From the NCBI GenBank assembly GCA_017642585.1, contig JAGCOR010000021.1, forward strand, positions 4,771 to 68,770: DNA of 64,000 bases. Direction: 5' to 3'. Positions 9,355 to 61,833 of this stretch are shown in pieces. This stretch comes from Alphaproteobacteria bacterium (GTDB lineage: Bacteria; Pseudomonadota; Alphaproteobacteria; Rs-D84). The notes beneath the pieces are model-generated. The model searched no databases. It had not been told where the DNA came from and saw only the letters and a list, made by a program, of their open reading frames with translations. Position 1 is the first letter of the stretch; every line of letters begins with the position of its first letter. The position numbers were made by a program, and so were the translations under genes.

Positions 9355-11754
9355 ATGAACATAGAGTTAGGTAAAAACATAAATCCGCGCGAATTGGAAA
9401 CGAAAATCCAAGAATTTTGGGATGCTAATGATTTCTGGACAAATGATGTAAACAGCGATAAAAAATCGTTCTGTATAATGATGCCCCCACCAAACGTTAC
9501 AGGTAATTTGCATATGGGGCATGCGTTGGATAATGTTTTGACCGATATTATCTGCAGATATAAGCGTATGTGTGGTTATGATGTTTTGTGGCAACCTGGG
9601 ACTGACCATGCCGCTATCGCTACACAATTATTGATTGAACGTGATTTATCTAAACGCGGTATAAATCCAAATTCTTTGACATTGGATGAAAAATTGCATG
9701 CTGCATGGGATTGGACCAAAGAATATGGTGGTCAAATTATCAATCAATTGCATATTTTGGGTGCAACACCTGTTTGGAAACGCGAAAGATTTACTATGGA
9801 TGCGGGACTGTCCAGTGCGGTTACAAAATTGTTTGTCAGCATGTATAAAGAGGGTTTAATTTATCGTGCAGAACGCATGGTTAATTGGTGCCCAAAACAA
9901 CAAACAACCGTTTCTGATTTAGAAATTGATACCCGTGAAGAACATGGTAAATTCTATTATTTCAATTATCCATTGGTTGATGGTGGTTTTATTGAAATTG
10001 CAACAACACGTCCTGAAACTTTGTTTGGGGATAAAGCAATTGCAATTCATCCAGAAAACGAAAAATTAAAACATTTGATTGGCAAACACGCAATCATTCC
10101 ATTAACAAATATTGAAATTCCTGTGATTGCAGATGAACACGCAGATCCTGAAAAGGGAACTGGTGCGGTGAAAATTACACCTGCACACGATTTCGACGAC
10201 TGGGAAGTTGGTAAACGTCATAATTTGGAACCTTTGTGCATTTTAACACCAGATGCAAAATTAAATAATGAATCTGTGGTTCCTGAAAAATATCGTGGCA
10301 TGGATAGATATGTTGCACGTAAAGCAATTATTGAAGATATTGAAGCCGCGGGTTTAATGGTCAAGATAGAAGACAAAGTTATTCCAACACCATATTCAGA
10401 ACGTGGTGGTGTGCCGGTTGAACCTATGATAACAACACAATGGTTTGTAGATGCTGAAAAATTGGCACAACCTGCTATCAAGGCAGTGGAAGAAGGCAAA
10501 ATTAAATTTATGCCCGAACACAGATATAATTTGTTTATGGCATGGATGAAAAATATTCGTCCTTGGAATATTTCTCGTCAATTATGGTGGGGACATCATA
10601 TACCTGCGTGGTATGACGAAGAAGGAAATGTTTATGTTGCAGAAACCGAAAGTGAGGCAATTAAACAATCTGGTGGTAAAAAATTGACACAAGATCCAGA
10701 TACTTTGGATACTTGGTTTTCATCGGGTCAATGGCCATTTGCTACATTGGGTTGGCCAGATAAAACAGCGGAATTGAAAAAATATTATCCAACAGATTAT
10801 TTGTGCACCGGTTCAGATTTAATATTCTTCTGGGTTGCACGTATGATAATGATGTCTATGTATACCATGGGTGATGTTCCGTTCAAGACGGTTTATTTGC
10901 ATGGTATGGTTGTGGATAAATTCGGCAAAAAAATGTCCAAGAGCAAGGGCAACGGTACCGACCCATTGGAAGCAATCGAAAAATTCGGTTCAGACGCAAT
11001 TCGTTATTGGGTTGCGACTGCACCAATTGGAACAAATTTGCCATATAACGAAGATGAAGTTAAACGTGGTTCAAAATTATTAACTAAATTGTGGAATGTT
11101 GCAAAATTCGTATTGATGAATTTGACAGATTTTGAACCAGATAGTGCAAAACAAATTCCTGTGGCTGAACGTTTTATCGAAGACAGATGGATTTTATCTG
11201 AATTAAATAAAACTGTTGCAGAAACACGCAAAAATTTGGATAAATATTTCAATTATAATGCGCGCAGTGCGATTGATACATTCTTCTGGGATGTGTTGTG
11301 CGATCAATATATCGAATTTGTCAAAGACAGATTCTGGAACCCTGAAAAATACAGTGCGGAATCAAAATTGGCTGCACAATGGACTTTGTACACAGTATTG
11401 CGTGCGGTAATTGCATTGTATGCACCATTTATTCCATTTATCACAGAAGAATTATGGCAACAGATATACAAGAAATACGAAGGTGGCGAAACATTACATT
11501 TGACCCAATATCCAGAAGTTAATTCTGAATATGATACAGATGTTTCCCAAATGGGTATTGCGTTGAATATTTTGAAAAATGTTCGGGGTCTGCGCACAGA
11601 ACGCAAAATTGGTAACGGTGCAAAACTGGAAACTTTGACAATTCCAGATGACACACCGGAAATGTTGCACAGATTGATAAAATCTGCTGCACGTGCAAAC
11701 GAAATTATTCTGGGTAAAGATTTAGATTTTGTTGTTGCGCAAAATAACGGATAA
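9355..11754 (+). CDS. valS: valine--tRNA ligase (short form, no C-terminal coiled coil)
   Basis: PPPNVTGNLHMGHAL (HIGH), KMSKSKGN and TLDTWFSS motifs; 799 aa. Confidence 0.9.
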   Translation: MNIELGKNINPRELETKIQEFWDANDFWTNDVNSDKKSFCIMMPPPNVTGNLHMGHALDNVLTDIICRYKRMCGYDVLWQPGTDHAAIATQLLIERDLSKRGINPNSLTLDEKLHAAWDWTKEYGGQIINQLHILGATPVWKRERFTMDAGLSSAVTKLFVSMYKEGLIYRAERMVNWCPKQQTTVSDLEIDTREEHGKFYYFNYPLVDGGFIEIATTRPETLFGDKAIAIHPENEKLKHLIGKHAIIPLTNIEIPVIADEHADPEKGTGAVKITPAHDFDDWEVGKRHNLEPLCILTPDAKLNNESVVPEKYRGMDRYVARKAIIEDIEAAGLMVKIEDKVIPTPYSERGGVPVEPMITTQWFVDAEKLAQPAIKAVEEGKIKFMPEHRYNLFMAWMKNIRPWNISRQLWWGHHIPAWYDEEGNVYVAETESEAIKQSGGKKLTQDPDTLDTWFSSGQWPFATLGWPDKTAELKKYYPTDYLCTGSDLIFFWVARMIMMSMYTMGDVPFKTVYLHGMVVDKFGKKMSKSKGNGTDPLEAIEKFGSDAIRYWVATAPIGTNLPYNEDEVKRGSKLLTKLWNVAKFVLMNLTDFEPDSAKQIPVAERFIEDRWILSELNKTVAETRKNLDKYFNYNARSAIDTFFWDVLCDQYIEFVKDRFWNPEKYSAESKLAAQWTLYTVLRAVIALYAPFIPFITEELWQQIYKKYEGGETLHLTQYPEVNSEYDTDVSQMGIALNILKNVRGLRTERKIGNGAKLETLTIPDDTPEMLHRLIKSAARANEIILGKDLDFVVAQNNG

Positions 11755-11782
11755 AAGTTATAATGTAAATAGGAAGGGAGCC

Positions 11783-12508
11783 ATGGTAGTAAATAAATTT
11801 GTCCAAGAAAGCGTGTTGAAATCATATCAATGTGATAGATATGGTTTTATGCGTCCTATAACTTTGATGAATGAACTGCAGGGTTTGGCGGGGGAACATG
11901 CTGATATTTTAGGTGCGGGACGTGACGTTTGTCTTTCCAAAGGTATTGCGTGGGTTCTTACCCACATGTTTGTTGATATTGTAGATATGCCACGTGCCAA
12001 GGACAGATTGGTATATGCCACATGGCCGGCGGTTTGTGGACCGGTGCGTTCTGAACGTGATTTTGAAATCAGAGATGAATATGGAAATTTGAAAATTCGC
12101 GCAATCAGCCAATGGGTGTTAATTGATTTACAAACCCGTCGTCCGGTGCGTATATCTGATCATTTCCCAGAATGGACTGGACTGCCAGAACGTGTATGGG
12201 ATCGCGAATTTGATAAATGTCCGGACTTTGTGCCTACAAGAGTCAGGGTTATGGCGTGCAGATTTGATGATATTGACGTTAATCAACACGTAAACAATGC
12301 TGTTTATACCGTATGGGCAACAGAATCTGTTGGTTTTACTTTTAGAAATGAACATAAATTACGCGGTATAGATGTTTACTTTGAACATGAAATATTCCCA
12401 GATACAAAAACTGTTCGTATAGAGGTCGCAATGGATGAAGATGAAACACGTCATAAAATACTGACGGATAATGTAGAACATGCGAAGATGGTTTGTTACT
12501 GGAGATAA
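11783..12508 (+). CDS. acyl-ACP thioesterase family protein
   Basis: Double hot-dog FatA/FatB-like sequence (RYGFMRPITLMNELQ..., DVNQHVNNAVY). Start set at the ATG at 11783 behind an AGGAAGGGAG RBS rather than the track start. Confidence 0.7.
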   Translation: MVVNKFVQESVLKSYQCDRYGFMRPITLMNELQGLAGEHADILGAGRDVCLSKGIAWVLTHMFVDIVDMPRAKDRLVYATWPAVCGPVRSERDFEIRDEYGNLKIRAISQWVLIDLQTRRPVRISDHFPEWTGLPERVWDREFDKCPDFVPTRVRVMACRFDDIDVNQHVNNAVYTVWATESVGFTFRNEHKLRGIDVYFEHEIFPDTKTVRIEVAMDEDETRHKILTDNVEHAKMVCYWR

Positions 12509-12520
12509 AAAAACAGAAAT

Positions 12521-12550
12521 AAAAAAAATCGCCAATCGGCGATTTTTTTT
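12521..12550. terminator. bidirectional rho-independent terminator
   Basis: A-run, atcgcc/ggcgat hairpin, then T-run, between the convergent thioesterase gene and rpmH. Confidence 0.6.
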
Positions 12551-12701
12551 AATTGATTGCGGATACAGCCAAACGTTTACGTCCCGCTGCACGACGACGA
12601 TTCAAAACATCACGTCCGCTTTTAGTTGCCATCTTTTCACGAAATCCGTGTGTCTTTACACGACGGGTTTTAGATGGTTGATATGTTCTTTTTGTTGCCA
12701 T
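12549..12701 (-). CDS. rpmH: 50S ribosomal protein L34
   Basis: My translation of the minus strand gives [50 protein letters not shown], a classic L34 sequence. It falls below the 60-aa ORF-track cutoff. Confidence 0.92.
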
Positions 12702-12866
12702 AATTAAATCCTTTTGCCCCTATATTTAATCACACGTTTTATAAAAACGCAACATTTTTATTTACTTTTTACAAGTCCCAGCTTTTTTAACCCTTCCAGA
12801 AACAAATAATATACAAAAACCGCTGCAAATAAGTTCCAAAATGGTAAAAATATTCCGTGCATTTTT

Positions 12867-13304
12867 TTATCTCCCTTGATTTTTTTGGTATTTTTCTGGG
12901 AAAAATACTGTGCCAATAACTAAAATAGCATATTTATCCCGACAAAGTCCATTTTTTAAATTTTCAAAGCAATGTGCCAATGGATTATACGATAAATCGC
13001 ATTTGCCACATTTCCCAGGATTACAAAATTCAATTTGCAATCTGTATTCAAAAGAACGTTCCCATTCCATGGGTGTTTGATTGGACATCCCGTTTGTTAT
13101 ATATTTTTTATAAAACTGGACATACATATTATACAGACAAGAATCCTGTGGAATAGGCGTAGTATCAAGTTTTTGATGATATTTTACTATTTCATCATTA
13201 GGCATATATCCAACCGGTATTAATTCAGGCCATGCATCATATTTGCCGTCTTTGATGCCAGAATGTACAAGTTTTACAAATATGTTATTTTTTTGTATTT
13301 TCAT
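12867..13304 (-). CDS. hypothetical Cys-containing protein
   Basis: 145-aa ORF with CNPGKCGKCD...HCF...C; no family recognised. Confidence 0.4.
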   Translation of the reverse strand: MKIQKNNIFVKLVHSGIKDGKYDAWPELIPVGYMPNDEIVKYHQKLDTTPIPQDSCLYNMYVQFYKKYITNGMSNQTPMEWERSFEYRLQIEFCNPGKCGKCDLSYNPLAHCFENLKNGLCRDKYAILVIGTVFFPEKYQKNQGR

Positions 13305-13442
13305 GTAAATGATGATAATACATATATTGATTTTGTCAAGGTTTTAGTGTCTTGTTTTTTTATGCTTTTTTTTGCTTTATTTCTTGACCGAAACAGTAAA
13401 AATTGGTAGGGTTTATATATCTAAAAAACAAGGGAAAAAGTG

Positions 13443-16217
13443 ATGTCTGAAATAAACGAAATAAATGAAATCAAAGTGCCACAATCTCCAATTGAACACG
13501 AAATGCGAACCAGCTTTTTGGATTACGCGATGTCGGTTATTGTGGATCGTGCTTTGCCAGATGTAAGGGACGGTTGTAAACCTGTGCACAGACGTATTTT
13601 GTACGTTATGAACGAAGTTGCGCCTGCAACAAAATCTACTGTGAAATCTGCCCGTATCGTTGGAGATGTGATGGGACGTTACCATCCACATGGTGATTCT
13701 TCTATTTATGAAGCAATGGCACGTATGGCACAAGATTTCTCGATGGGTGAAATGTTGGTCCAAGGTCAAGGTAACTTTGGTTCCCGTGACGGTGATAAAC
13801 CTGCTGCTATGCGTTATACAGAGGCACGTTTGTCAAAGTTGGGTGCGTCTTTGATGGAAGATTTGGACAAAGATACTGTTGATTGGCAACCAAACTTTGA
13901 TGGTACATTACAAGAACCAATTGTATTGCCAACTAAATTCCCAAATTTCTTGGTCAACGGTGGTTCTGGTATTGCTGTGGGTATGGCAACAAATGTTCCA
14001 ACATATAATTTAGGTGAAGTTTGCAATGGTATTTTAGCTATTTTAGACAACAAAGATATAACCGATGATGAATTGTTTGGAATTATTCCGGGGCCTGATT
14101 TTCCAACTGGTGGAATTATCATGGGACATGCCGGTGCATACAAAGCACACACAACCGGTCGTGGTTCTATCATTGTTCGTTCAAAAACACATTTTGAAAC
14201 TATGCATGATCATCCAGTTATTATTGTTGATGAATTGCCATACCAGGTTAATAAATCACAATTGATTATTAAAATTGCTGAAATGGTCAAAGATAAACGG
14301 ATTGAGGGAATTTCTGATATACGTGATGAATCATCCAAAGAAGGGTTACGTGTTGTTATTGAATTGAAACGCGACACAATGCCAGAGGTTGTATTAAATC
14401 ATTTATTCCAAGATACAGAAATGCAATCTAATTTCCCTGTGAATATGATGGCATTAAATCGCGGTCGTCCAATGTTGTTCACAATAAGAACTGTGTTGGA
14501 TGCGTTTATCGAATTCCGCGAAGAAGTTATCCGCCGCAGAACTATATTTGATTTGAACAAAGCGCGTAATCGTGCACATACTTTGTTGGGATTGTCTGTG
14601 GCTTGCGGTAATTTGGATGAAGTTATTAAATTGATTAAAGAATCTGCAAACCCAGATGAAGCGCGTGTTGCGTTGATTGCACGTGGTTGGGCTGCATCAG
14701 ATATTGAATCTTATATCAATTTGATTGATGATCCAAACACAGAATACAAAGATGGTATGTTCTATATGTCTGAAGATCAAGCCAAGGCAATTTTGGAATT
14801 GCAACTGCACAGATTGACAGGTTTGGAACGTGATAAAATACATAATGATTTGACTGAATTGGGCGCAACAATTAAAGATTTGTTGGCAATATTGGGCAGT
14901 CATGAACGTATTGTTCAAATTATCCGCGAAGAAACCGCTGCGGTGCGTGATAATTGGTCTCAACCACGCAGAACAGAAATATCTGATGCGGAAATTGATA
15001 TAGATATCGAAGATTTAATTGCACGCGAAGACATGGTCGTTACTGTTTCGAATACAGGATATATCAAACGTGTGGCACTGGATACTTACCGTGCACAAAA
15101 ACGTGGTGGCAAGGGACGCAACGCGATGACAACCAAAGAAGACGATTATGTTGTTAATGTGTTTGTTGCAAATACACATACACCGTTATTGTTCTTCTCG
15201 TCCAAAGGATTGTGCTATAAATTAAAAACATATAAATTGCCAGAAGCATCTGCATCAGGCAAGGGACGTCCATTGGTTAATTTGTTGCCTTTGACCGAAG
15301 GCGAAACAATCACAGCTATTTTGCCGGTGCCAGAAGACGAAGTAAAACGTGCCCAAGAATCAGGTGTTGAACATTTCTTGATGTTTGCAACTGCATCTGG
15401 AACAGTGCGTCGTAATCGTATGTCTGATTTTGATTCAATTCGTGCAAATGGAAAAATTGCTATGAAATTAGACGAAGGCGATTCCTTGATTTCTGTATTG
15501 CCATGTAATGAAGGTCAAGACGTGTTCTTGTCAACATATCGCGGACGTTGCATCAGATTTGCAGTTCCTGAAATTCGTATATTCGCAGGACGTAATTCAA
15601 CCGGTGTTCGCGGAATGTCTTTACAGAAAGATGATTATATCATTGGTATGGCTATGTTGAATCATGGTGAATCTGATTCTGTGGTGCGTGCTGCATATGT
15701 AAAGCAAAGTCGTGCTTTGCGTCGTGCACAAACAGGTATCGAAGAAGAAGCAGATGCCGAAGAAGAAAATACAACATTGGTATTAAGCGATGAACAAATG
15801 GCCAAGATGGCATTACGTGAAGAATTCATTTTGACAATCTCTGAAAATGGATTTGGTAAACGTACATCTTCATATGAATATCGTTTAACACATCGTGGCG
15901 GTAACGGATTCACAAATATTAAATTGGGTGGTAAAAATACCGCGGTTGCAGGTTCATTCCCTGTAACAGATGACCAAGATATAATGATGGTTACAAACGG
16001 TGGTAAAATTATCAGAACGCCTGTCGCGGATGTTCGTATCGCAGGTCGTTCTACAGCCGGTGTAACATTGTTCAGAACTGCTGAAAATGAAAAGGTTGTA
16101 TCTGCAATTTCTATCGATCACGAAGAAGAAAATGCGGATGAAAATGTGGAAGTTGTTGAAAACACAGAATCTGGCAATACGACAGAATCTGTGGCCGACA
16201 ACACAGTAGTTGAATAA
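13443..16217 (+). CDS. gyrA: DNA gyrase subunit A
   Basis: [37 protein letters not shown]-terminal beta-pinwheel repeats and an acidic tail. ATG at 13443 sits behind an AGGGAAAAAG RBS. Confidence 0.95.
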
Positions 16218-36608: not shown

Positions 36609-36734
36609 AAAAATTTGGCGAATTATACCACAACCATTTTGAACAAAAATACTAAATGGAGTGGTTTAGTTGTGTTTTTCTTTCATTATATTCCAAACAA
36701 AAAATGCCCCAATGGGCATTTGTTAATTTTGGTT

Positions 36735-36893
36735 GGAGCGCACGGATTGTAATTCCCAACACTGCGTATCGGGCCCCTTTCACTTCGCTTCGCTACGTCC
36801 CGAACCAAACAACTGCGTTGTGTGGCCTAATACCGAAAACGCCCCATACAAAAATAAAAAAATACCCGCAAGGGGTGTTTTTTATTTTTGGTT
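36735..36893 (+). repeat. about 160-bp direct repeat, copy 1 (begins with a tRNA-Gln 3' fragment)
   Basis: Near-identical to 37817-37976; I saw one substitution and one small indel. Starts with ggagcgcacggatt, the reverse complement of the tRNA-Gln T-arm/acceptor 3' strand. Confidence 0.85.
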
Positions 36894-36903
36894 GTGGTGT
36901 GTG
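36884..36903 (+). repeat. 20-nt direct repeat atttttggttgtggtgtgtg (copy 2)
   Basis: Identical to 35719-35738; overlaps the left inverted repeat of the EEP cassette. Confidence 0.8.
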
Positions 36904-37803
36904 GGCAAAACGCGAGTTGAGACAATGCTTTCATCTTTGTATACCAATTTCAAAATCAAGAACAAGCGGGAAATGGTCTGATATATCTGTTTTTATGACT
37001 TTAAAATCTTTGACTCTTATATCATCTGTAACAAAAATATAATCAACAACCATATCTTTTTCCGGTCTGGTTGTTCTTAATTTGTATTGTACAGACAAAT
37101 TTGTTACATGATTTTCTATGATTTTAATACTCGGACTTTCTGGTAACAGATTAAAATCACCTACAACAATAGTTGGTATTTTATCTTTTAATAATTCTGA
37201 TATTATAAATTCTGATTGTGCGATGGTTCTTTCATCACCCATACGAGTAGCGTTCCATATACCATGAACATTTATTATTTTTAGTTTTTTATCATTTGGT
37301 AAATTTATGATTGCCGATAATATACTACGAGCCCAATCTTTTTCTTTGAAATGTGTCGCATCATATTCTGTTTTATAGTTGTTGTAATAGAATTTATTTT
37401 TTGCCGAACAAATTTTATATTTTGACAACATTTGTGTTCCTTGTTCAGCCTTGCCGCCAAAATTTTCAACACACATACCATTACTTGTTACACATTTAGC
37501 AATATATATTGGTGCAAAAAAGGAATAGGGCAGGCTTTTAGAAAAATAATTTAATATATCTCTGCCACTTCTAAATCTTTGGAAAACGGTTTTTTCGTGT
37601 GGCATCATACTTTCCTGTAATGCGATAAAATCGGGTGCCAGATTATTTAATAAATCTATTACTTCTGGTGTGTTATCTTTTTTTATTGATATATTAAAAC
37701 TTACCAATCGCATTTTTATTATCCTTTGTTGTATGGATTTTGGCATATTGATGTATTTTAGCAAGTGTTTTATTACTTTTACATTTCGCCCACACACCAC
37801 AAC
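36891..37803. mobile_element. 913-bp cassette bounded by 16-bp perfect inverted repeats, carrying an EEP-family gene
   Basis: gttgtggtgtgtgggc at 36891-36906 and its reverse complement at 37788-37803. It interrupts the tandem tRNA-fragment repeats. No transposase and no target-site duplication seen. Confidence 0.4.
36931..37713 (-). CDS. endonuclease/exonuclease/phosphatase (EEP, DNase I-like) family protein
   Basis: MRLVSFNI, FIALQE, NVHG, VVGDFN and SDHFPL motifs. Start at the ATG at 37713 behind an AAGGAT RBS; the longer track ORF would start inside the inverted repeat. Confidence 0.75.
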   Translation of the reverse strand: MRLVSFNISIKKDNTPEVIDLLNNLAPDFIALQESMMPHEKTVFQRFRSGRDILNYFSKSLPYSFFAPIYIAKCVTSNGMCVENFGGKAEQGTQMLSKYKICSAKNKFYYNNYKTEYDATHFKEKDWARSILSAIINLPNDKKLKIINVHGIWNATRMGDERTIAQSEFIISELLKDKIPTIVVGDFNLLPESPSIKIIENHVTNLSVQYKLRTTRPEKDMVVDYIFVTDDIRVKDFKVIKTDISDHFPLVLDFEIGIQR

Positions 37804-37816
37804 GATATTGAATAAT

Positions 37817-37976
37817 GGAGCGCACGGATTGTAATTCCCAACACTGCGTGTCGGGCCCCTTTCACTTCGCTGGCGCTACGTCCCGAACCAAACAACTGCG
37901 TTGTGTGGCCTAATACCGAAAACGCCCCATACAAAAATAAAAAAATACCCGCAAGGGGTGTTTTTTATTTTTGGTT
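37817..37976 (+). repeat. about 160-bp direct repeat, copy 2, abutting the intact tRNA-Gln
   Basis: Same as 36735-36893. Its last 5 nt are the encoded ACCA-end of the tRNA. Confidence 0.85.
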
Positions 37977-38045
37977 GGAGCGCACGGATTCGAACCATGA
38001 TAAAGAGAACCAAAATCTCTTGTCCTACCATTAGACGACGCTCCA
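37972..38045 (-). tRNA. tRNA-Gln (UUG), CCA encoded
   Basis: Minus strand reads TGGAGCGTCGTCTAATGGTAGGACAAGAGATTTTGGTTCTCTTTATCATGGTTCGAATCCGTGCGCTCCAACCA. Cloverleaf with a U1-A72 pair; anticodon loop TTTTGGT. Confidence 0.9.
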
Positions 38046-38127
38046 AAGATATGCCAATTATATATTTGTTTTGAATTTTTTCAATAAAAAAATTCAAGAT
38101 GCGATTCTGATATTTATAAACATAGGT

Positions 38128-38691
38128 TTAATAACCGCGTTGTTTTAATATGTAAACCGTTTGAAATCCAAACATACGACATATTGCCGCAAGTTTTGGG
38201 CTGTGCATGAGCGATGGAAGAGCAAAATCTGAGATTAAATCCATCCGATATGCCAGATCCATAGGGTGTGTGGTTGGATTTGGTAATTTATCCAGATGAT
38301 ATATCATGGAATCAACATATAAATGAAAATTTCTTTCGGCATCGCTTAATGGTTGTTTGGTTTTTACTTTTTCACAAACATTTGTTTCTACCAATTGTTT
38401 ATGCAATCCTTCAAAACACAAATCTGAATACCCTTTTGCTTTCAAAATACAGGTTGTGACAATTGGACATGTTTTACATTGTATGCCACCAACATTATAA
38501 CAATTAGGTTCTAAGTTTATATCAAGAAGTTCAAAACCATCGTCAAAACAAGATTTAGGCGAGGTAATTATGGAACCATCAAATGGGCTGGTGGTTTGTG
38601 CACCAACAGGAATACCGCCAATGTACACAGGGGATACAGATTTTTCTGCTGTGGGTTGTTCAAAAAGGTCCAATTGTTTTCCGTTTGCCAT
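38128..38691 (-). CDS. hypothetical protein with N-terminal QLDLF (beta-clamp-binding-like) motif and Cys cluster
   Basis: Begins MANGKQLDLFEQP; contains CKTCPIVTTC...C...C; 187 aa. Confidence 0.45.
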   Translation of the reverse strand: MANGKQLDLFEQPTAEKSVSPVYIGGIPVGAQTTSPFDGSIITSPKSCFDDGFELLDINLEPNCYNVGGIQCKTCPIVTTCILKAKGYSDLCFEGLHKQLVETNVCEKVKTKQPLSDAERNFHLYVDSMIYHLDKLPNPTTHPMDLAYRMDLISDFALPSLMHSPKLAAICRMFGFQTVYILKQRGY

Positions 38692-61060: not shown

Positions 61061-61417
61061 TTAATCGTTTTTGGATGGGTATTTTTTATGTAAATAATTA
61101 AATAAAGAATCTGGAGTTTGAATAAAGATATTTTTTATACCACAGATTTTTTTAGTAAATTGAACACATGTAAAACCTTTGAATCGGGGCAGGGATGGAC
61201 AGGAAATATTATATTTTATAAATACCCAACCATATTGTTTTAAAATTTCTATATCGCGTTTTTTTATTGGAATTAAAACGACACGATTTAATTTTGTAAA
61301 TTGATAAATAAAAGCTTTGTTTGTTGTAATTATGACGGGTGCACAATGACGAAAATGTTTGCACAATATATTAGCAGATATTTTATGAGATTTTGTTGAA
61401 AATCCAACGTATAGCAT
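61061..61417 (-). CDS. hypothetical protein (weak His...Cys pattern reminiscent of permuted papain-like/NlpC-P60 folds)
   Basis: 118 aa; SHK...HFRHC early and GFTCVQF late; no firm assignment. Confidence 0.35.
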   Translation of the reverse strand: MLYVGFSTKSHKISANILCKHFRHCAPVIITTNKAFIYQFTKLNRVVLIPIKKRDIEILKQYGWVFIKYNISCPSLPRFKGFTCVQFTKKICGIKNIFIQTPDSLFNYLHKKYPSKND

Positions 61418-61485
61418 ATTTTGTCCCTTTTATATTTTAATGTGTTTCTGACTTATCTCCCCGTCCATAAATCAGAAATAAATTA

Positions 61486-61833
61486 TTATTCTTCAATCCA
61501 ACCATTTTTGCGTGCGACATCGCCAATTATTTGCATAGCAGAATTCCATAATGCTGCGGCACGATTTTCAGAATAAATATATTGATGTGGTGCGCGTTTT
61601 TTATCGCCAAATTTTTTCATAACTAATAATTGTTCTTCGGTTAATTTACCAGATAGAAACAATTTAGTTATCAAAGTTTCTACATCCAATATTTCGCAAG
61701 GTCTGTGAACACAAGATTGTTTCCTGAATCCATTTTGAATTGATTTAGAATACAAAAACCAAAACCACATTTGTTCTGCGTTTTGAAATTTTTGTGTTAA
61801 ATCAAGATTTGTATTTTTTAATGTATTTTCCAT
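61486..61833 (-). CDS. hypothetical protein, possible small DNA-binding protein
   Basis: 115 aa; the segment GKLTEEQLLVMKKFG resembles an HTH; preceded by palindromic repeats. Confidence 0.35.
   Translation of the reverse strand: MENTLKNTNLDLTQKFQNAEQMWFWFLYSKSIQNGFRKQSCVHRPCEILDVETLITKLFLSGKLTEEQLLVMKKFGDKKRAPHQYIYSENRAAALWNSAMQIIGDVARKNGWIEE

Follow-up and report, generated by a model that had tools for sequence, protein, structure and literature searches.

Among the described systems closest to the locus analyzed here are the islands that tyrosine integrases place in tRNA genes, among them the tycheposons of Prochlorococcus, which integrate serially at tRNA genes so that older elements are pushed outward (bioRxiv 10.1101/2020.12.28.424599). 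We analyzed a stretch of 64,000 nucleotides (the window) from an Alphaproteobacteria bacterium of the Rs-D84 group (GenBank assembly GCA_017642585.1, contig JAGCOR010000021.1, positions 4,771 to 68,770), a group with genomes of 0.75 to 1.0 Mb, among the smallest in the animal gut (PMC12306168); identical or near-identical contigs were found in bovine and other gut metagenomes. Behind the tRNA-Gln(UUG) gene of the window stand two copies of a noncoding unit of about 160 bp, here called U, with a single gene of the endonuclease/exonuclease/phosphatase (EEP) family between them. The locus is like tRNA islands in that insertion is in the 3' part of a tRNA, the tRNA gene is regenerated, and a direct repeat stands at the far end, and like tycheposons in having copies in series, older ones being pushed outward, and small accessory-gene cargo in a streamlined genome. 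It is unlike them in that no integrase was found in or near any copy of U, in that the basic element is only ~160 bp and noncoding, and in that, where other elements have an ordinary attP arm, U has a highly conserved structured core.

Read from the tRNA outward, the window carries tRNA-Gln, one U, a truncated block of tRNA sequence, the EEP module with its 21-nt inverted repeats, a second U, a full block, and the original terminator. These features, as well as the promoter-like site and the solo repeat described below, lie on the minus strand, with the exception of the original terminator (terminator A), which is given without strand. The anchor of the structure is an intact tRNA-Gln(UUG) with an encoded CCA at positions 37972 to 38045 (ARAGORN; Rfam tRNA match, 58.7 bits), with a promoter-like site, TTGAAA-16-TATAAT, at 38057 to 38084, which agreed with the consensus at 11 of 12 positions in a consensus scan and is a consensus match only. 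An earlier note on this DNA had reported that a 22-mer from the tRNA 3' end occurs at two sites and its 14-nt core at a third, and repeat searches and shuffles showed all of these sequence statements to be correct. The 22-mer is present at 36727 to 36748 and at 37969 to 37990, and the 14-mer GGAGCGCACGGATT was found at exactly three sites in the window, starting at 36735, 37817, and 37977; in shuffled windows it had 0.16 matches even with two mismatches allowed, and three copies were reached in 0 of 100 shuffles.

The first of these block copies (AATCCGTGCGCTCCAACCAAAA, 37969 to 37990) lies within the functional tRNA, extends from A58 of the T-loop to the CCA plus 3 nt of trailer, and is attL-like. 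The most distal copy (36727 to 36748) comprises the full 22-nt tRNA 3' end with trailer and is attR-like; it adjoins the original flank, a junction also present in a close relative on a metagenome contig (L083), and terminator A, the original tRNA-Gln terminator, was located by a terminator scan at 36702 to 36721. The middle copy (AATCCGTGCGCTCCA, 37816 to 37830) is 15 nt long and, being truncated, has neither discriminator base nor CCA. The tRNA and unit sequences diverge in the T-loop, where the common piece in tRNA sense is AATCCGTGCGCTCCA(ACCAAAA) with A58 as its first base. The middle piece is fused to a 12-nt linker (TTATTCAATATC, 37804 to 37815), the final 12 nt of the standard spacer of the gene module arrays described below, homologous to the conserved spacer 3' end ATTATTCAATGT in three related loci (L013, L085, and L012); in relatives, ATTATTCAATGT is the spacer 3' end directly before the forward inverted repeat. 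The truncated tRNA piece and the 12 spacer-matching nucleotides thus mark the tRNA-proximal spacer as a mosaic of U and a spacer remnant.

As the earlier note had described, both non-tRNA copies continue as a direct repeat with a hairpin and a small element of A-run, hairpin, and T-run. The repeat (161/162 nt, 36734 to 36895 versus 37816 to 37979) is 98% identical, the two U copies differing by two substitutions and one 1-nt indel and sharing a 104-nt run of perfect identity, and the hairpin ccaaacaac-tgc-gttgtgtgg and the terminator composed of an A-run, a hairpin, and a T-run were both verified in the U copies. The tRNA-proximal copy (U2, 37831 to 37968; covariance-model match, 114 bits) has its conserved core at 37831 to 37924, with hairpins H1 and H3 recognized by hairpin pair counts and the end GGGAATTAC, and terminator B at 37940 to 37966 (terminator scan); it also holds an inverted copy of the acceptor 3' strand. 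The distal copy (U1, 36749 to 36889; covariance-model match, 108 bits) has its core at 36749 to 36841 and terminator B at 36857 to 36883 (terminator scan). A 128-amino-acid (aa) open reading frame (ORF) at 36656 to 37042, called as a gene in the public assembly (L001, 11650 to 12036), spans U1 and an inverted repeat and is almost certainly spurious.

Further copies of U were gathered by searching Joint Genome Institute (JGI) metagenome contigs with its most conserved stretch and by comparison with genome loci. The U core was recovered in 14 copies with 13 distinct sequences, and every core ends in GGGAATTAC. In tRNA sense, U is composed of four parts: an intrinsic terminator, the stem of which differs between copies through compensatory changes; a short sequence complementary to the 3' strand of the tRNA acceptor; a core of ~95 nt with the invariant runs ...GTTGTTTGGTTCG..ACG.AGCG..AGCG.AGTGAAAGGGGCCC, a variable hairpin, and then GGGAATTAC; and, right after TTAC where the original junction is kept, a copy of the 3' end of the upstream tRNA. 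Two core hairpins were paired in 95.4% of cells, compared to 26 to 43% in slid controls, and three hairpin pairs showed compensatory changes, covariation evidence that we regard as moderate given a small sample of related sequences. Frequent G-U pairs in these hairpins assign the fold to the tRNA-sense strand. The two ends of U are not inverted repeats of each other. Thirteen nucleotides of the core (GTTCGGGACGTAG, window region 37870 to 37890) are identical to the anticodon arm of a tRNA-Pro(CGG) (L081, 1439 to 1515), which could be a coincidence or a trace of the origin of the element.

Alternatively, U could be a host-beneficial structured small RNA or terminator module, perhaps tRNA-like, that is kept by selection next to tRNA genes and whose tRNA pieces arose by partial tRNA duplication and not by mobility. 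The conservation of the core is indeed extreme (the cores of L038 and L079 are identical at 94 of 94 nt, compared to ~89% identity in the adjoining terminator), the hairpins are strand specific with G-U pairs, the G+C content of U is about 0.5 compared to 0.36 in the genome, and in the window the 5' UGGGGCG of U can pair with the 3' CGCUCCA. However, this acceptor-like pairing is lost in L038, L078, and L081, no promoter is evident, and Rfam 15 matched only the tRNA in the window, with no family for U or for the alternative spacer element, so that a known RNA family was rejected. A tRNA-like RNA with a closing acceptor stem was rejected as well, since the pairing is not general and the fold of the whole unit had a z score of −0.38. 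Metatranscriptome contigs covered the tRNA only, which is weak evidence because the organism is rare in those runs. U is, furthermore, present or absent in near-identical strains, and most relatives have a different element at its position. Taken together, we regard a selected host RNA as quite unlikely.

U is found behind tRNA-Gln(UUG) in the window, L038, L077, L079/L082, and L083; behind tRNA-Gln(CUG) in L078, with a remnant in L028; and behind tRNA-Pro(CGG) in L081/L080, where two U copies stand in tandem and a third follows 4.2 kb further on, past cargo that holds no integrase. Where both the tRNA and the distal junction are intact, the block extends from A58 to 0 to 4 nt past the CCA (19 to 23 nt), and for all three kinds of tRNA its sequence is always that of the 3' end of the local upstream tRNA; copies deeper in arrays or with a rearranged far junction have shorter blocks. 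The earlier note had taken the tRNA 3' pieces as att-like duplications, and the same element behind three tRNAs, each with its cognate block starting from A58, bears this out: U with its cognate block is the geometry of site-specific integration in the T-loop and 3' part of a tRNA, with the tRNA regenerated. More divergent U-like elements were seen in L077 (10500 to 10662) and directly behind tRNA-Gln in L061 and L073 (ACGGTTCG..., with the hairpin CCGCAAC-AAA-GTTGCCGG); the covariance model detected them weakly or not at all, and the family is therefore wider than the 14 copies analyzed.

Blocks of this kind could also arise if U, having no att site of its own, were inserted by target duplication, with staggered cuts at A58 and just past the CCA producing a duplication of 19 to 23 bp by a Cas1- or casposase-like or target-primed reaction. 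Casposons target tRNA 3' ends and produce duplications of 14 to 15 bp. In accordance with such a process, the block always has its left edge at A58, whereas its right edge lies 0 to 4 nt beyond the CCA, and both blocks always match the local tRNA; this includes L079, in which both blocks carry the host T-stem variant CCGTA, compared to CCGTG in L038, despite the identity of the two cores. Nevertheless, U lacks terminal inverted repeats, none of the loci examined showed a casposase, Cas1, or reverse transcriptase, T-loops are near-universal and yet only three kinds of tRNA are occupied, and some truncated blocks stand beside other array junctions. We consequently give target duplication little credence.

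Allelic comparison showed that the presence of U varies among relatives. The JGI contig L083 is 98.4% identical to and collinear with the window except that it lacks 1082 bp, which is exactly one U plus the EEP module. Its order is tRNA-Gln, one U, the full block, terminator A, and a 266-aa gene, and its single U matches both U copies of the window. Empty sites, in which terminator A directly follows tRNA-Gln, were found in the more distant L029, L031, and L049, and a contig of run X37 joins 36721 to 37966, which is an empty junction. Empty, single-U, and U-cargo-U states thus all exist, so that the search for empty sites that the earlier note had proposed was positive, and the architecture, with occupied and empty alleles, is not identical in all relatives. 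That note's claim of at least two integration events fared less well: two events are not required, since recombination between two U copies, in either direction, can produce the 1082 bp by which L083 differs.

The copy number of U is low. Local BLAST and the covariance model found two copies in the 64 kb of the window, both at the tRNA; the covariance model of the core, applied to 474 kb of related loci and to the remainder of the window, detected no other strong copy, and the contig holding the shared part of U had a depth ~1.4 times that of single-copy contigs, which shows that U is not a high-copy repeat. A dispersed repeat of the repetitive extragenic palindrome (REP) or miniature inverted-repeat transposable element (MITE) type, which the earlier note had named as the reading that would overturn its own, was therefore rejected: U was found only at tRNAs, and the inverted repeats occur at one or two loci per genome.

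The states of this locus might also derive from a single old U insertion, after which homologous recombination or unequal crossing-over between U copies or spacers produced the U-EEP-U or the L083 form and general recombination brought in the EEP module from a related strain, leaving the repeats as passive scars. The L083 difference of exactly one repeat period (1082 bp), with an L083 U that matches both window copies, the 104 nt of 100% identity between U1 and U2, and the reshuffled look of spacer types that are mosaics are all in line with this. It leaves unexplained, however, why the same core stands behind three tRNAs with matching 3' blocks and why, in six contexts, the EEP module is cut off precisely at its inverted repeats. 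We consider such a history, the main alternative to our own reading, unlikely, though not negligible.

The EEP gene (36931 to 37713, 260 aa; Pfam PF03372, E = 4.6e-13), which was also called in L001, is cargo. It is the sole gene between the two U copies and is not a recombinase, in agreement with the earlier note, which had placed no recombinase between or next to the repeats. That note had overlooked the inverted repeat that brackets the gene, as well as the clade-wide cassette array to which it belongs. On the promoter side, the repeat (GTTGTGGTGTGTGGGCGAAA, 37784 to 37803) comprises 20 nt that are 95% complementary to its partner; on the 3' side (TTTTGCCCACACACCACAACC), the repeat pair and the comparison of junctions place it at 36890 to 36910, and the sequence common to both is GTTGTGGTGTGTGGGC(A/G)AAA (36891 to 36910 versus 37784 to 37803). 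At its outer end, the 3'-side repeat reads CAACC and then AAAAAT, which matches the tRNA-Gln 3' terminus and trailer, and its (A/C)CCAACCA is identical to that terminus. A repeat family search found a solo remnant of the 3'-side inverted repeat with core (gatCACACACCACAACCAAAAAT) at 35719 to 35741; this solo copy, ATTTTTGGTTGTGGTGTGTG, lies between a GNAT gene and the 266-aa gene and appears to be the remnant edge of an older cassette.

Homology to other EEP-carrying contigs starts and ends exactly at the inverted repeats (36884 to 37803 in the window), and homology with L012 and with a strain in run X6 stops at the repeat at 37784 to 37803. The module was found in at least six different spacer combinations: with U on both sides in the window, in L085/L086 with a long spacer following the tRNA and another terminator, and with other spacers in L084, L087, L012, and the run X6 strain. 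EEP homologues of 75 to 83% identity have no inverted repeats and occupy other gene contexts, for example between secA and dnaE. The module has terminal inverted repeats and no evident target-site duplication. In run X6, contigs join the left repeat to the right one (36920/36927 to 37784) with 10 to 17 nt between them, which would be an "empty" module minus the EEP gene. Since U and the inverted repeats are points at which assemblies break, many EEP contigs have a length of ~1 kb. The possibility that the EEP protein acts as an insertion endonuclease resembling that of long interspersed nuclear elements was rejected: a reverse transcriptase is lacking, Exo_endo_phos_2 gave a weak match that stays below the family cutoff, and the homologues between secA and dnaE are accompanied by neither U nor inverted repeats.

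A scan for the inverted-repeat pattern, conducted with one genome per species, placed this module in a wider setting. The pattern was found at about 44 loci in low-GC gut Alphaproteobacteria, many labeled Candidatus Enterousia, and about 15 other matches, in high-GC genomes, were chance matches. Arrays occur at one or two loci per genome, as judged where two loci come from one metagenome-assembled genome (MAG), and consist of modules of one or two genes bracketed by the 21-nt inverted repeat GGTTGTGGTGTGTGGGCGAAA behind tRNA-Gln(UUG) or tRNA-Gln(CUG). The order is tRNA-Gln, spacer, and then n repetitions of inverted repeat, one or two genes in either orientation, inverted repeat, and spacer (for example, L013 [10720 to 15480], L020, L025, L044, L049, L053, L064, L068, and L069). 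In the syntenic relative L013, the module series behind tRNA-Gln includes a short-chain dehydrogenase and an isochorismatase, and the spacers are mutual direct repeats. Cargo varies by species and the flanks are conserved, with an efflux operon upstream and often a LysR-like gene downstream; a recurrent 300-aa protein beside the arrays has the look of a LysR-type regulator by sequence. Every array junction has the form X-CAACCAAA(A/G)(A/T)T-Y, where X stands for the end of a tRNA, a repeat, or a U and Y for any of three types of spacer.

Genes for a nucleotidyltransferase, a P-loop kinase, and a PNP-like protein to the left of the U region have homologues at array loci in other genomes, the nucleotidyltransferase being repeat-bounded cargo in L049 and L041. 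These homologues identify the stretch of the window from tRNA-Gln toward tRNA-Glu as an old, partly decayed array, and the whole interval bounded by tRNA-Glu and tRNA-Gln (~24.1 to 38 kb) has the look of such an array. In L013 (10693 to 10777), a stem of ~35 bp is built from the tRNA-Gln 3' end, the terminator, and the tRNA 3' end repeated in inverted form (GGCGCACGGAT), a feature found in most relatives (also L018, L020, L042, L044, L048, L053, L064, L068, and L075). It is followed by a covarying hairpin with a GAGCG..AGCGCA loop, whose AGCG..AGCG motif is common to the U core; stem and hairpin look like a second family of structured spacer elements.

The uniformity of the array junctions invites the converse view, namely, that the inverted-repeat array is primary and U is merely one spacer type, with spacer and repeats folding into a hairpin, as integron attC sites or the folded attP of CTX phage do, and recombining with a hairpin of the tRNA-Gln 3' end by means of a host recombinase such as Xer. 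Spacers of 24 to 75 nt together with the repeats do fold as hairpins of ~115 nt (−45 to −47 kcal/mol), and in many loci the tRNA 3' end, terminator, and inverted copy provide the ~35-bp stem. On the other hand, the repeats do not fit the integron R''/R' consensus, their AAC/GTT motif being on the inner and not the outer side of the hairpin, a dif-like dyad is not apparent by eye, and no IntI was found in the window or the ~45 related loci; the consensus of canonical attC or dif-like sites is not matched. Cargo genes stand in either orientation, and the same gene module occurs with different spacers, so that gene and spacer do not form a fixed cassette. We judge this view to be very doubtful.

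No gene for the enzyme was found near U. A phmmer search with XerD and IntI1 detected no tyrosine recombinase in the window or in ~45 related low-GC loci, and an integrase in cis was rejected for the window, for L013 (20 kb), for the tRNA-Pro locus (16 kb), and for the 45 genome loci. Among the related loci examined, no integrative and conjugative element (ICE) or integrative and mobilizable element (IME) with a U core was found. A phage or plasmid origin was likewise rejected, as four scans of viral contigs and BLAST searches against phage and plasmid collections gave no match. At its right end, the window holds a gene for a TrbI/VirB10-like conjugation protein (PF03743, 62061 to 63599) and small ORFs (also at 61061 to 61833), and the GC skew changes sign there; this region may mark the border of a conjugative element, and an integrase of that element could lie beyond the window.

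We consider it probable, if only just, that U is a miniature, noncoding, nonautonomous site-specific insertion module of the Candidatus Enterousia/Rs-D84 group that is moved by a recombinase acting in trans. In effect, it would be a naked attP-like module that can occur singly, in tandem, or as the terminal part of a cargo segment. The observations behind this are the anatomy of U, its association with tRNAs and cognate blocks, the three allelic states, the exact module boundaries, and the lack of a nearby tyrosine recombinase; from them we infer the enzyme class, a circular intermediate, and the direction, gain or loss, of the 1082-bp change. The recombinase, most plausibly a tyrosine integrase or an enzyme of the Xer type, would be encoded at another place in the genome or on a different element, and a circular molecule of cargo and U would recombine with the tRNA or with a resident U, successive integrations pushing older cassettes outward. 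Recombination of a 1082-bp circle (EEP module plus U-type spacer) with a resident U would give the exact structure of the window, and the reverse reaction, or homologous recombination between two U copies, would give the L083 form. Of the serial integration in trans that the earlier note had proposed, the att-like geometry, the allelic states, and the lack of a recombinase in cis stand, whereas the role of a tyrosine recombinase is deduced from geometry only.

Several points weigh against integration by a recombinase in trans. The enzyme class is a guess from geometry, no recombinase having been identified. A circle of 160 bp is too small to be a likely free intermediate, and stand-alone U copies may for this reason be deletion products. 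L038 and L079 have identical cores and yet the L079 blocks are host specific, for which target duplication would be the simplest explanation, an integrase fitting L079 only if the variant base lies within the region of strand exchange. The second U of the window needs no second integration, and the fold of the whole unit is no more stable than that of shuffled sequence. Lastly, the comparison is based on assembled contigs, in which an excised circle, RNA, or within-sample polymorphism would not be visible.

Two features elsewhere in the window were recorded alongside. Just upstream of tRNA-Gln, a 187-aa cysteine-rich protein (38128 to 38691) without a Pfam family is syntenic in L013 and has only two homologue clusters among 5.8 billion proteins. 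Further to the left, two tandem paralogues of ~600 aa (29202 to 31013 and 31404 to 33260) flank a PQ-loop gene; one of them has a weak Aminopep family match, and a homologue of the family is present in a MAG from horse feces.

A broader proposal, which we put forward tentatively and hold to be possible rather than probable, is that Rs-D84 and Enterousia possess an undescribed gene-cassette platform in which the tRNA-Gln 3' terminus is the point of entry, one-gene modules bounded by repeats that mimic this terminus are exchanged, and U and the second spacer type serve as hairpin recombination sites for an unlinked, possibly housekeeping recombinase; U would then be the first "miniature attP" that moves between tRNA genes. 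Although streamlined, these gut genomes retain one or two sites at which species and strains exchange accessory genes, and if this exchange is indeed due to a recombinase unlinked to the cassettes, it would represent a minimal integron-like route of gene flux parallel to the tRNA islands of Prochlorococcus. The sole visible activity of the 95-nt core of U is to sit in tRNA genes and rebuild them, and identification of its partner enzyme could open the way to a compact integration system directed at tRNA genes. In practical terms, U and the inverted repeats break short-read assemblies and give rise to spurious ORF calls, and awareness of them improves the annotation of MAGs.

Beyond the tRNA islands, four further kinds of systems invite comparison. 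Like cis-mobilizable elements (CIMEs), U has att-like bounds and no integration or transfer genes of its own and may move only in trans or by accretion; CIMEs, however, are kilobase-sized decayed ICEs or IMEs beside a related ICE, whereas U has 160 bp and recurs at three tRNAs in one and the same minimal form, and the related loci revealed no partner ICE. Integron arrays and clusters of attC sites lacking integrases (CALINs) share with the arrays described here the one-gene modules, the similar imperfect palindromes arranged as direct repeats, the single fixed entry, and the lack of a recombinase inside, but here the entry is a tRNA 3' end and not attI, genes face both ways, and module and spacer assort independently. 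Where attC sites have their R'' (RYYYAAC) and R' (GTTRRRY) boxes on the outside, the repeats here carry CCACAAC and GTTGTGG on the inner hairpin side, and, unlike in a complete integron, no IntI-like ORF adjoins the array, the gene upstream of the tRNA being that of the 187-aa protein without a Pfam family. The pdif modules of Acinetobacter plasmids, with their inverted XerC/D sites, and mobile insertion cassettes, which derive from insertion sequences, have no transposase, and are bounded by terminal inverted repeats, likewise hold a single gene between short inverted sites in many contexts and without an enzyme. A pdif site has 28 bp (two 11-bp arms and a 6-bp center), and successive sites alternate in orientation; the alternating inverted sites here are 21 nt long and show no dif-like dyad by eye. 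The modules show no evident target-site duplication and are found at one or two tRNA-Gln loci per genome. From MITEs and REPs, U differs in that it is not dispersed and has no terminal inverted repeats. Set beside these systems, we class U as a miniature, nonautonomous, tRNA-regenerating integrative module in a tRNA-Gln-anchored array of inverted-repeat-bounded gene modules.

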